Source of the DNA: a virus
IMG/VR virus record: IMGVR_UViG_3300031227_009907
Span: 17,577 to 81,576 of that record
Reading direction: 5' to 3' (one strand)
DNA: 64,000 nt
The notes under the pieces are model-generated. The model was not told the DNA's origin and searched no databases. It saw nothing but the letters and a program-made list of their open reading frames with translations. Positions 35,606-50,360 of the stretch are shown piece after piece (the first letter of the stretch is position 1; every line of letters starts with the position of its first letter). The position numbers and the translations under genes were made by a program.

Positions 35606-36007
35606 ATGGATAATAATGAAATAAAAAAAATAAGGAACGCGATAGGTGAGGTGGATGAGCTTAACAAGGCCCTGGGGGTTGCGATTGGGGCCTTGGCAGT
35701 CAAGTATGGTCCTAAGCTGCTTGCGGGGGCTAAGAAGGCATGGAAGGGGGTTAAGTGGGCTGCTGGGAAGAAGGGGAAACGGGCGCTAAGAAGGAAGTTG
35801 GTACAGAATCCTGTAACGGGTAAATTAATAGCACGTAAGAGACGTTTTAAAAGGAGACATCCTCGTGCATATAGGATTGGAAGCGGCATTGTTGATTATG
35901 CGGCTCTTCATGCTGGGTTTAATGTCGCTGGGAAGGTGGGAAGGAAGATTAAAGGTAGGCGTGAACGAGAACAGGTATATAGACAATTAGGCCGAAGAAA
36001 CAGATAG
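35606..36007 (+). CDS. basic putative head-cargo protein
   Basis: GAGGAGG SD; LNK-A then amphipathic cationic sequence. Confidence 0.75.
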   Translation: MDNNEIKKIRNAIGEVDELNKALGVAIGALAVKYGPKLLAGAKKAWKGVKWAAGKKGKRALRRKLVQNPVTGKLIARKRRFKRRHPRAYRIGSGIVDYAALHAGFNVAGKVGRKIKGRREREQVYRQLGRRNR

Positions 36008-36026
36008 TTAGAATAAGGAGAAAGAA

Positions 36027-36728
36027 ATGAGTGAGGTGAGGAATATTCTTGGTGAGATTAGAAGTGCCGTTAAGACCATGAATGGGGAGATTCAAAAAGT
36101 ATCTCCTCGTGTTTTAGGGTTGATGGCAAGGGGAACTAAGCGCAGAAAGCAGATTACAGGGGTTTTAAGGGGGGTGGGCTCTGCTGCGTTGAATGTTAAA
36201 AGAAATGAGGCTGCTGCAAAGACCTATAGAGGCATGGCAAGTGCCGCCAAGACTTCTTCTAAAAGAAGGAAATTTTTAGCTTTAGCTCGTAAAGCCGAAA
36301 AGACGGTGCGAACCGGTAGGAAGGCTAGGATTGGTTCGGCTGCTGCCGGAGTTGGTGCTGTTGCTTATGGTGCTGGTAGGCGCAGGGGAAGACGGCAGGG
36401 AGACGAGTATGAAGGAGAGGAAGAGTATGCTCGTGGAGAAGGGCGGGGGGTTGGTGGTCCTCGTCAGGGCTTAGGTCCTGTTGCGTACTGTACTTGCCCT
36501 AAGTGTGATTATAAAGTGAAGCATACCCCTAATAAACCTTGTCTTGATATGACTTGTCCTAAATGTGGGGCAAAGCTGGTTGGTACAGAGAAGAAACCTA
36601 AAGAGGCGGCTAAAGAAGAGTTTAGCAACCATATTTCTGAGCCTTTAAGAAATGCCAAGTTTGCCGCTGAAGTATTTCAAGATAGAGCAAAAAGGGTAGA
36701 GAAAATACTTAAGACGATTGAGTCGTAG
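36027..36728 (+). CDS. basic putative head-cargo protein with C-terminal Cys-rich domain
   Basis: IQK-V, Gly/Ala zipper, EEEY, CTCPKC..H..PC..CPKCG. Confidence 0.8.
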   Translation: MSEVRNILGEIRSAVKTMNGEIQKVSPRVLGLMARGTKRRKQITGVLRGVGSAALNVKRNEAAAKTYRGMASAAKTSSKRRKFLALARKAEKTVRTGRKARIGSAAAGVGAVAYGAGRRRGRRQGDEYEGEEEYARGEGRGVGGPRQGLGPVAYCTCPKCDYKVKHTPNKPCLDMTCPKCGAKLVGTEKKPKEAAKEEFSNHISEPLRNAKFAAEVFQDRAKRVEKILKTIES

Positions 36729-47910: not shown

Positions 47911-47912
47911 TA

Positions 47913-50360
47913 ATGCCCTGGACAACAGAACAGATGCGTCAAAAGGGGGCTAAAGATAATCCAGCTCAAGCTGCGAAAATAGCAAATGCAATTCTTCGTG
48001 ATACAGGAGATGAAGCAAAAGCTATTCGCATAGCCTTATGGAAGACGAATAAGAAGTCTAAGAATAAACTTAAAAAAGTATCCACTTATGGCCCTATACA
48101 GACATCGACTATGCACGAAGGGTTTAGGAGAGATGTTTTATTAGAGAAACTTCCTTCATCTTTACGTGTATTATTAGTTGGATATTTTGTAGGCAGGGTT
48201 GGATTGAAGAGGGTATTGAGCGGAATAAGGAAGTCATGGAATATTCTTCCTATGCCGGTTAAAACGGCATTAATGGCTGCGCTTGGTGTATATTATGTAG
48301 CCAATAAATCTAAGAAGGAGTTCTCTAAAAGAGTTAATAAAGAGCGTGAATTTAAGAAAGCTGCATTGTCTTTAGGTAAATTTACTAAACTACAAAAAGA
48401 GGGTCAAAGAGGTCGTTCAGGATGGAGGTCTGATGATCCTCTTAATCCTCATACAAAGGGCTCTCAAGGAGGAAAGAAGGGGTCTCGTAAGAAAGGGGAG
48501 AAGCCCCTTCCAAGCCAGCGCAGGGAGTATGGAGAGCGCACAGGCTATGGAATACGCAGGGTTCCAAAGGGGACATTGTCTACACTTGGATATATGGCTG
48601 AGAGGGCATATTTAGCGGGGATTGAAGGCTTTGGAGGTGGAGGGGTTAAAGAAGTAAGAAGAGAGTATAAGCGAGTCCGTGAATTAAATCAGAGAAGGCG
48701 TAGAGAGGAGATAGAGCGGAAAAGCAGGACCCAGAGAGAAAAATATGTTGACGATGATTTAACGGGAACATTAGGATTCGTTGTACGGGGGGTAAAGCTT
48801 TTTGGAAATAAGCCTGTTACCCCTGAAGATAGAGAGAAATGGATTTCACAAAAGAAAGGTTTCTCAAAAGAGTTTGATCGAAGAAGGAAGCAACTTGGAA
48901 GAGACGTTAAACAGGTTGTGGCATCCGGTCTTGAGGGGGCTGGTACAGGAGCTACCGTAGGAATTATATGGGGGGCTATGAAGGGGTTACAAGATAAGGT
49001 GCGTAGACATCCTATATTAAACCCTCTTAATATTGGAGTAGATAGAAGGATTTTAGAGAGTGAGATAAAAAACTATAGAGCAATGAGAAGGGGGAATGAA
49101 TTAAGTCGTCTTGAAGATATTAAACAAGAAAGAAAGAGTGAACAAGGAAGGGAGAAAAAGCGTAGGAGAAGGGGGCAACAGCCTCGTGATATGGAAGCAA
49201 TGGAGGCTATGTGGAATTCTCAAGAAAAGAGGTTGACAAGAAACTTTATGGAGGCTGGGACTAAAGGGAAGGTAAATAAGCCTAAGTGGTATCAAAGAAG
49301 ATTTGGTAAAATAAGTAAATCTTCTACATATATTGGGACTATATGCGATGTAAATGAGTTGATAAATAAGTTAGCCTCTAGCCCTGTTGGGCAAAATATT
49401 AATAAGGCTATTTCTTCTCATCCAGTAAGTGATTTAATGTTGACAAGGGAGGACTTAGGGCATAATTTAAAGCCATATAGGTATAAGCGTAAAAAGAAGC
49501 GAGTTAAAAGCGAATATGAATATAATGACGGATATGGCAACGAAGATGATGCTGATTATAGTAATTTTAGGAGAGATACATTAAGGGTTATACGAAACCT
49601 TGCTCAAAAGAAACCATCTGACCTTGCAAGGGGGGCCTTAAAGGTCTCTGGCAACAATATAGATATGGCATTTATGTATTTATATGAAAGAATCGGTAAA
49701 CTTGATTCTGCTAAGAAGTTATTTGTTCGTACTATTAAAAATAAATCTTTTGAAAACAAAAGTGAAGAAGGGCAAACAAGATATGCTATAACATTGGCCA
49801 ATGAATTGCAGGGGAAGTATATACGAGCTATGAAAATAATAAGGGCAGTTGGGGATAAAAGAAGAGAAGAGTACGAAGAAGCAGGCGATCATATTCTTAC
49901 AAGGCAGCAAATGGGAGGGCGGCTACCCAAGATGCCTTATGATAGGCGGAGAAGGCGTATATTGAGGCATCGTAAACCAGAAGTGATAGAGGAAGAAAGG
50001 CGCAACAGGACAGAGGAATATGAATATGAAGATGACGATTTTAGTGAGATTAGGAGAAGCACCTTAAGGTCCATAAGAAGACTTGTCCAAAAGAAACCAT
50101 CTGAATTTGTAAGGGCAGCCTTACGCGAGAGTGAACACGACGAAGATGGTGCATGGATGTCTTTATATCAAAGAATGAGTCAGCTTGAGGCCATTAAAAA
50201 GGAGTTTATTGTTGACCTTAAAGCTAAATCATTTAGGGATAAAAGAGAAAAAGGGCAAATAATGTATGCTTTAGCTTCTATCAATGAATTACAGCAAAAA
50301 TATCTGAAGGCTATAAAGCTACTAAGGAAGATTGGAAGAAAAAGACGTGACAATAATTAA
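47913..50360 (+). CDS. modular basic putative head-cargo polyprotein
   Basis: N-terminal MPW..IANA.L..DE..AI.IA (YdaT/ChaB-like); two hydrophobic modules; ~105-aa C-terminal duplication after EYEY. Confidence 0.8.
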   Translation: MPWTTEQMRQKGAKDNPAQAAKIANAILRDTGDEAKAIRIALWKTNKKSKNKLKKVSTYGPIQTSTMHEGFRRDVLLEKLPSSLRVLLVGYFVGRVGLKRVLSGIRKSWNILPMPVKTALMAALGVYYVANKSKKEFSKRVNKEREFKKAALSLGKFTKLQKEGQRGRSGWRSDDPLNPHTKGSQGGKKGSRKKGEKPLPSQRREYGERTGYGIRRVPKGTLSTLGYMAERAYLAGIEGFGGGGVKEVRREYKRVRELNQRRRREEIERKSRTQREKYVDDDLTGTLGFVVRGVKLFGNKPVTPEDREKWISQKKGFSKEFDRRRKQLGRDVKQVVASGLEGAGTGATVGIIWGAMKGLQDKVRRHPILNPLNIGVDRRILESEIKNYRAMRRGNELSRLEDIKQERKSEQGREKKRRRRGQQPRDMEAMEAMWNSQEKRLTRNFMEAGTKGKVNKPKWYQRRFGKISKSSTYIGTICDVNELINKLASSPVGQNINKAISSHPVSDLMLTREDLGHNLKPYRYKRKKKRVKSEYEYNDGYGNEDDADYSNFRRDTLRVIRNLAQKKPSDLARGALKVSGNNIDMAFMYLYERIGKLDSAKKLFVRTIKNKSFENKSEEGQTRYAITLANELQGKYIRAMKIIRAVGDKRREEYEEAGDHILTRQQMGGRLPKMPYDRRRRRILRHRKPEVIEEERRNRTEEYEYEDDDFSEIRRSTLRSIRRLVQKKPSEFVRAALRESEHDEDGAWMSLYQRMSQLEAIKKEFIVDLKAKSFRDKREKGQIMYALASINELQQKYLKAIKLLRKIGRKRRDNN

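Follow-up and report, generated by a model that had tools for sequence, protein, structure and literature searches.

The viral DNA considered here is a stretch of 64,000 nucleotides (positions 17,577 to 81,576 of IMG/VR record IMGVR_UViG_3300031227_009907), called the window below, whose genes are all carried by the + strand. It is part of an 81.6-kb virus contig, of which a 99-kb version also exists. Between the genes for the large terminase and the portal lie five genes encoding very basic ORFan proteins of 133, 233, 99, 747 and 815 residues (Table 1). They are tightly spaced on one strand, within a block running from terminase through portal and protease/scaffold to capsid, which is the location expected of internal head proteins. 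Net charges range from +20 to +88, compared with −30 for the protease/scaffold protein. Within the window, units composed of a Gly/Ala helix, an Arg/Lys run and a Glu/Tyr patch are confined to these five proteins. The reading that suits them best is that of a modular, hitherto undescribed family of basic glycine-zipper proteins of the head interior, tied to an extended portal tail and falling within the known class of phage internal, cargo and ejection proteins.

An original prediction, made from the sequence letters, had placed Gly/Ala stretches, Arg/Lys runs and acidic Glu/Tyr patches in this region, and all five of the peptides it quoted were found there on the + strand. The layout of repeated units that it described is also real and is non-random, the counts being far above shuffled expectation. 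All six frames of the window were scanned for modules, defined as uncharged stretches of at least 14 residues, Gly+Ala making up 45% or more, with 3–7 Lys/Arg among the next 8 residues. The full module was found only in the 233-residue protein (once) and the 747-residue protein (four times); weaker versions occur in the 133- and 815-residue proteins and at the C-terminus of the portal. A Glu/Tyr patch follows each of the five full modules, giving tandem cationic units each with its acidic spacer. Acidic-Tyr triplets number 7 against 0.42 expected in the 747-residue protein (none of 500 shuffles reached 7), 3 against 0.11 in the 233-residue protein (0/500) and 6 against 1.0 in the 815-residue protein (1/500). 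A Lys/Arg run leading directly into an acidic, Tyr-containing patch is seen 6 times against 0.47 expected (maximum 3 in 300 shuffles), and EEYA[G/S/R]G occurs four times, the module copies being paralogues and none of these counts a tally of independent events.

The modules are homologous within and between the 233- and 747-residue proteins and are true paralogues. In the longer protein their order is basic helices, Gly/Ala helix, Lys/Arg run and Glu/Tyr patch. A unit of this protein has been duplicated in tandem, and the duplication was detected by a repeat search after being missed by Tandem Repeats Finder. It had been claimed to begin exactly at EEY, and detectable similarity does start at Glu139-Glu-Tyr-Ala, although the limits of any tandem duplication can by nature be shifted along the repeat. 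Zinc ribbons of the form CxxC...CxxC recur in the 233- and 747-residue proteins. The protease/scaffold protein has one as well, as does a small conserved gene that precedes the portal in related phages (L032:7145-7762 and L016:3038-3592), and the ribbons may be a common assembly or DNA-binding handle.

In a word-indexed search of 5.8 billion proteins, the 747-residue protein recovered only itself. Against 1.84 billion representatives, phmmer returned the protein itself and one distant relative, P0002 (E 8e-8), a 959-residue metagenomic protein in which a unit made up of a Gly/Ala helix, a His/Lys patch and D-Y-P is repeated four times in tandem. Scans of IMG/VR with single proteins, and of metagenomes with an alignment of the sulfotransferases described below and then with P0002, gave no matches, and the ESM Atlas gave no usable match (scores ≤0.77, TM <0.5). 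The portal has 65 homologues at 25–60% identity, all from uncultured phages and several on contigs of ~95–105 kb; its matches in 50,697 phage records are distant ones only, at 22–26% identity. An alignment of the portal homologues led to 33 IMG/VR loci, and in 13 of the 33 the capsid protein is 53–63% identical to that of the window. The five basic proteins are part of the fast-evolving gene set of this uncultured clade of ~95–105-kb phages.

An equivalent head block is present in four related loci, L016, L032, L035 and L041. Upstream of the portal these loci encode proteins with the same grammar, barely alignable to those of the window, and one such protein is found in a fifth, L024. In the relatives' proteins, which are very basic, a Lys/Arg run comes after a Gly/Ala helix whose last residue is often Tyr; some also have a zinc ribbon. 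The closest parallel is L041, where proteins of 196, 233, 93, 960, 575 and 695 residues, each 22–25% Lys+Arg, precede the portal. The gene directly before the portal, encoding the 815-residue protein, is conserved in L016 (tblastn, 28% over 292 residues, E 3e-12), and the Gly/Ala stretch and Lys-rich tail of the 133-residue protein align to part of a 766-residue head-region protein of L035 (36% over 61 residues, pairwise E 3e-5). Contigs of other organisms from the salt-lake runs that yielded the window match it briefly at 36537-36581 and at 41507 and then diverge, leaving loose ends; this suggests that related lake phages share the zinc-ribbon piece of the 233-residue protein. The window itself has turned up many times in salt-lake metagenomes, in almost clonal form. 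Contigs from four runs are essentially identical to it, and there is therefore no population variation with which to test constraint on the motifs.

It could be argued that the pattern is one of composition only, the proteins being basic, of low complexity and quick to drift, and gaining their Gly/Ala and Arg/Lys runs through duplication and slippage with no specific function. Recent tandem duplication, near-orphan status and weak alignability between relatives all fit such a view. However, diverged paralogues, several related phages, P0002 and the portal tail all show the elements in the same order, and the open reading frames (ORFs) are long and unbroken and do not differ between many samples, which makes a purely compositional origin highly improbable.

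The portal provides the main basis for assigning a location to the modules. Every portal of the clade longer than 700 residues has a C-terminal extension ending in a hydrophobic Gly/Ala helix and a basic tail, and short portals have none. In the window (52300-52782) and in homologues P0012–P0059, the extension comprises a long low-complexity linker, an acidic patch, the Gly/Ala helix and the basic tail, all of which are missing from short portals. Module-bearing genes were found upstream of the portal in the window and in three of three related loci with long portals, compared with two of 10 loci that have short ones and ~10 kb of upstream DNA (one-sided exact probability ~0.015, calculated by hand and not corrected for phylogeny). 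Portal C-termini face the capsid interior. As the portal C-terminus shares the module with the basic proteins, a common location is indicated for both, inside the head and close to the portal.

A different account was given in the original prediction, namely that the basic proteins are polyproteins cut at E-E-Y or E-Y-E, perhaps by two HExxH (zincin) domains, to free many cationic membrane-active or DNA-condensing peptides. The excess of basic runs followed by acidic Tyr patches is in its favour, as are the placing of EEYA[G/S/R]G at module starts, the tandem 84-residue unit bounded by E-E-Y-A, the presence of two weakly related HExxH domains in neighbouring head proteins and, in L041, modules with SEEYESG and RRIEYGSGG. 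Nevertheless, this account is unlikely. Most of the corresponding modules in L016, L032, L035, L041 and L024 lack the acidic Tyr patch, which the prediction itself had named beforehand as the result that would count against a processing or sorting code. Among about twenty modules of relatives, the few with a Tyr in acidic context after the basic run are the two just mentioned and one with DEGY in L016. A spacer or cleavage motif conserved among homologues was not found, P0002 keeping only D-Y-P. The suggested likeness to antimicrobial-peptide precursors is not supported either; the proteins have neither a signal peptide nor an export route, and their hydrophobic stretches are too weak for Sec-type insertion.

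The HExxH domains are real, but nothing ties them to these substrates. They are weakly alike (E 7e-4) and match peptidase families only below threshold (Peptidase_Mx, E 0.0015, below the Pfam cut-off). The two large, basic proteins that carry them also have in common a repeated domain of ~60–95 residues, present in three copies in the protein following the portal. The published precedent for peptidase domains of this sort, in phage proteins that are packaged, is a prediction that they process themselves (Iyer et al. 2017, PMC5512222).

A second motif, common to the capsid protein, would fit a prohead-protease site better than E-E-Y does. The sequence [LIVF]xK[VA] is found at residues 13–70 in 15 of 80 ORFs genome-wide, and nine of the 15 lie between the terminase and capsid genes, the latter included. 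Four of the five basic proteins have it in this range, and the fifth has LKKV at residues 11–14. The protease protein has the motif too, and the N-terminus of the capsid protein has it twice; IQKAISS of the capsid protein is conserved throughout the clade. Near the N-terminus, hydrophobic-x-Lys before Val or Ala is the better candidate for cleavage by the prohead protease.

The Gly/Ala segments are 15–19 residues long. A strict glycine zipper (GxxxGxxx[G/S/T] or [G/A/S]xxxGxxxG) is present in modules 1, 2 and 4 of the 747-residue protein and four times in the 815-residue protein; module 3 of the former and the module of the 233-residue protein have only GxxxG or small-xxx-small. The segments are weakly hydrophobic, with apparent insertion free energies of +4 to above +7 kcal/mol, compared with values below 0 kcal/mol for real signal peptides and anchors encoded in the window (e.g. 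at 40048-40356 and 40479-40916), all being crude sums on a biological hydrophobicity scale. By the same sum the five proteins have no N-terminal hydrophobic segment or signal peptide, and none of the segments qualifies as a Sec-type transmembrane helix, for which insertion should be energetically favourable and the length at least about 19 residues. An AlphaFold2 model of the 233-residue protein (mean pLDDT 64) shows a helical hairpin (37–73/77–124), a disordered acidic linker (125–152), the strands of the zinc ribbon and a C-terminal helix. The Gly/Ala segment ends the long helix of this basic hairpin.

Several familiar explanations for such segments were considered and rejected. A Tat-like signal, suggested by Arg-Arg with a weakly hydrophobic Gly/Ala stretch and a basic c-region, was set aside because these elements are internal and repeated and lack S/T-R-R-x-F-L-K and A-x-A. 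Multi-pass membrane proteins would require better energetics and an alternating charge pattern. The Glu/Tyr patches are internal and so are not tubulin-like EEY tails or acidic tails of the kind found on single-stranded-DNA-binding proteins. Condensation of the genome by bulk neutralization would need very high copy numbers, as the head region's seven very basic proteins (the two with HExxH domains and the five discussed here) together supply, at one copy each, ~+420 charges against ~200,000 phosphates. In two further IMG/VR loci, L005 and L007, a 130-residue protein has the halves of a zinc ribbon flanking a long glycine-zipper stretch that holds the 11-residue Gly/Ala motif of the window's modules.

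These properties also bear on whether the proteins enter the virion at all. They could instead be factors of the infected cell, membrane-associated in the manner of tail anchors or binding nucleic acid, with roles in takeover, exclusion or at assembly sites, their place in the late region being incidental. A helix with an aromatic residue and a basic cluster does resemble a tail anchor, several of the L041 proteins end right after the motif, and there are non-structural genes in the same interval. Such roles are improbable, however, given the unfavourable predicted insertion energy, the poor fit of repeated helices, each with a basic run, to alternating membrane topology, the tight coupling of the genes to that of the portal and the presence of the same module in the portal, a certain virion protein.

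The explanation that we favour, tentatively, is that the five are fast-evolving, very basic internal head proteins, either core or cargo, associated with the portal crown and with DNA. Packaging, contact with the portal, DNA binding and membrane insertion are steps that we infer from the patterns described above. Each protein would be built of a short module comprising basic amphipathic helices, a Gly/Ala helix of 15–19 residues and an Arg/Lys run. The Gly/Ala helices would pack tightly on each other and on the twelve portal tails to give a portal-proximal core, and the Arg/Lys runs would bind the acidic scaffold first and the packaged DNA later. The prohead protease may trim N-terminal leaders ending in hydrophobic-x-Lys before Val or Ala, as in the capsid protein. 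At infection the proteins would exit with the DNA, and their weakly hydrophobic glycine-zipper helices would perhaps enter the host membrane, as is supposed for stretches of tape-measure and ejection proteins. The Glu/Tyr patches would be peculiar to this lineage, each following a basic run and serving as its acidic counter-charge or as a spacer rather than as a conserved cleavage code. The membrane-active or DNA-condensing role first proposed is therefore kept in part; a DNA-binding and/or membrane-active role inside the virion is the most plausible one, but release at E-E-Y is unsupported.

A number of observations weigh against this explanation. None of the five proteins, nor any of ten proteins from the relatives, belongs to a Pfam or PHROG family, and neither the 747-residue protein nor the capsid protein has a match by tblastn in the 50,697 phage records, nor is there a cultured relative. 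The similarity of the relatives' modules is largely compositional (pairwise E 3e-5 to 3e-3), and the loci in which they accompany long portals are not independent of each other in phylogeny. The leader motif has only four residues, and these very proteins were used in part to define it; the AlphaFold2 model of the 233-residue protein has low confidence over the Gly/Ala stretch. Lastly, genes that are clearly non-structural (dCMP deaminase, methyltransferase, sulfotransferases and lipoproteins) share the interval between terminase and portal, and position alone is therefore a weak argument.

Table 1. Features of the window; positions are counted from its first nucleotide
Feature	Position	Strand	Details
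Large terminase with HNH-bearing intein	32257-35196	+	Intein_splicing 4.5e-22, HNH_3 9e-6
133-residue protein	35606..36007	+	net +30; Gly/Ala stretch and Lys-rich tail 35669-35758
233-residue protein	36027..36728	+	net +29; Gly/Ala helix, RRRGRR and Glu/Tyr patch 36330-36428; CxxC...CxxC zinc ribbon 36495-36566
99-residue protein	36732..37031	+	net +20; Lys/Arg run 36888-36908; C-terminal GEYED 36999-37013
HExxH (HENAH) of 766-residue multidomain protein 37452-39752	39459..39473	+	
Sulfotransferase (Sulfotransfer_3 type), intact	43896..44690	+	
Paralogous sulfotransferase, one in-frame TGA at codon 157	44690..45493	+	similarity to paralogue continues past TGA
747-residue protein	45667..47910	+	net +82; four modules 46255-46341, 46507-46596, 46804-46881, 46945-47103; zinc ribbon 47656-47733
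Tandem duplication of 252-nucleotide (84-residue) unit within 45667-47910	46081-46332 / 46333-46584	+	70% nucleotide, 75% amino acid identity
815-residue Lys/Arg/Glu-rich protein, directly before portal	47913..50360	+	net +88; glycine-zipper stretch 48924-48986; internal duplicated domain; Glu/Tyr patches 49509-49523, 49863-49880, 50013-50030
Portal with 280-residue C-terminal extension	50383..52782	+	Pfam Phage_portal 2e-30; Gly/Ala helix and first basic residues 52504-52578, basic tail to C-terminus
HExxH (HEFGH) of 1031-residue multidomain protein 52775-55870 following portal	53306..53320	+	
Prohead protease fused to acidic scaffold-like region	56226..57956	+	net −30; zinc ribbon 57465-57542; DEEYED 57372-57389
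Major capsid protein, SU10-type	58048..59115	+	N-terminus with VQK-V and LQK-A

The remainder of the contig encodes replication proteins, a collagen-like tail fibre and many glycosyltransferases, the tail genes being off the contig. Besides the terminase, one portal homologue, P0047, also has an intein.

The two sulfotransferase genes are directly upstream of the gene for the 747-residue protein. The in-frame TGA of the second is identical in contigs from three further salt-lake runs and is therefore not an assembly error; this copy could be a pseudogene or be expressed by read-through. In single-sequence comparisons with the PDB the best matches of the intact enzyme are to human TPST2, in three collinear stretches that cover the 5'-PSB and 3'-PB. 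Both motifs for binding 3'-phosphoadenosine-5'-phosphosulfate (PAPS) are present (5'-PSB STGRxGT and 3'-PB RDPRxFxRS). In an alignment of eight members of the family, an invariant His-Glu aligns to Glu98-Glu99 of TPST2, the second of which we take to be the catalytic base. A Foldseek search with a model of pLDDT 85 placed TPST1/2 at ranks 1–8 (E 9e-8 to 1e-6), with the OLS sulfotransferase at 1e-6 and TM-scores of ~0.5, and a profile search gave 1.2e-10 for OLS and 2.2e-10 for TPST2.

These enzymes might sulfate the tyrosines of the Glu/Tyr patches, creating a stronger, switchable polyanion that would mask the Arg/Lys run or mimic DNA until maturation. The adjacency of the genes, the TPST2 matches with the aligned Glu99 and the Foldseek ranking are consistent with this, and the patches EYEY, EEEY and DLDY..YYYP..YDDE resemble classical TPST substrates. 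No sulfotransferase match was obtained in five relatives that lack the Glu/Tyr clusters, although G004 is the only complete record among the five. Sulfation of the patches is nonetheless distinctly unlikely. An unrelated high-GC phage (L001) has the closest homologue, at 52% identity; there the gene is surrounded by glycosyltransferases and has no acidic-Tyr proteins near it, so that enzyme and substrate are not inherited together. Glycosyltransferases are also numerous in the phage of the window. Scores for the OLS and CurM sulfotransferases are close to those for TPST, with TM-scores of only ~0.5, Lys158 of TPST2 is not conserved, the second copy has its in-frame TGA and the co-occurrence rests on n = 1. 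A scan of genome contigs for bacterial homologues gave two loci of 75% GC in metagenome-assembled genomes, whose context was uninformative. Downstream of the cluster in L001 is a tail-fibre-like protein (16405-18615) with very long Gly-Thr/Gly-Ser repeats, which are possible glycan acceptor sites.

The window's enzymes have the fold and PAPS-binding motifs of TPST1/2 and of RaxST, which acts on RaxX in Xanthomonas, and the neighbouring tyrosines are in strongly acidic context. The likeness is at the level of the superfamily, with OLS and CurM equally close, and the nearest homologue travels with glycosyltransferases. It is more likely that the phage sulfotransferases act on glycans than on protein tyrosines. 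Genes resembling TPST beside acidic Tyr clusters could still reveal protein sulfation by phages; if so, no earlier case of a bacteriophage that sulfates protein tyrosines is known to us, and among bacteria and their phages only RaxST-RaxX would precede it.

The favoured reading, that the five basic proteins belong to the head interior, can be set against several known systems. In adenovirus, the viral protease acts on the core precursors pVII, pre-Mu and pVI inside the capsid, freeing basic DNA-condensing and membrane-lytic peptides. The repeated cationic units of the window, lying beside acidic stretches, recall these and the multi-copy precursors of antimicrobial peptides and pheromones, by analogy only. 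Unlike antimicrobial and pheromone precursors, the window's proteins have no secretion signal, and the spacer is not conserved in relatives.

The internal core and ejection proteins of the podoviruses T7 (gp14, gp15 and gp16) and P22 (gp7, gp16 and gp20) are stacked on the portal within the head (T7) or carried by the tail; they exit together with the DNA and presumably build a conduit across the envelope. The window's proteins have no homology to them and their genes lie between those of terminase and portal. The energetics of their Gly/Ala helices are unfavourable for spontaneous insertion of the Sec type. There is some likeness to tape-measure proteins, which have hydrophobic, Gly-rich segments, as a near-identical Gly/Ala motif is found in giant ORFs of other phages that resemble tape-measure genes (not annotated here).

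Phages also have large multidomain proteins whose genes adjoin that of the portal and for which packaging is predicted; some have zincin-like peptidase domains, and they have been described as polyvalent proteins or MuF-fused effectors (Iyer et al. 2017, PMC5512222). The two HExxH proteins of the window, being large, multidomain and zincin-like, fit this description. The glycine-zipper proteins differ from polyvalent proteins in having no recognizable enzymatic domain, and the text of that study mentions neither glycine nor transmembrane elements (PMC5512222). The same paper cites processing of the DdrB head protein of P1 (PMC5512222).

If the five proteins are packaged, an environmental clade of ~100-kb phages builds the interior of its heads from an undescribed kit of interchangeable modules, each a glycine-zipper helix with an arginine run, and these modules are common to the cargo and to the portal's own tail. 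This would provide a simple sequence rule for recognizing head-internal or injected proteins in uncultured phages and a testable model of docking on the portal. The internal proteins of T4 (IPI-III and Alt) are basic, are loaded with the prohead core, lose a leader cut by gp21 at a motif also found in the capsid protein and are injected with the DNA. We know of no internal protein of T4 or P1 with glycine-zipper helices, Arg runs or zinc ribbons, and the window's proteins have no sequence similarity to these proteins in Pfam, PHROG or the 50,697 phage records. Candidate cleavage in the window would also follow Lys where that in T4 follows Glu, and packaging here is presumptive. Like the T4 internal proteins and the Dar/Ddr proteins of P1, however, they form a set of small to large basic proteins that are encoded together with the genes of the head.

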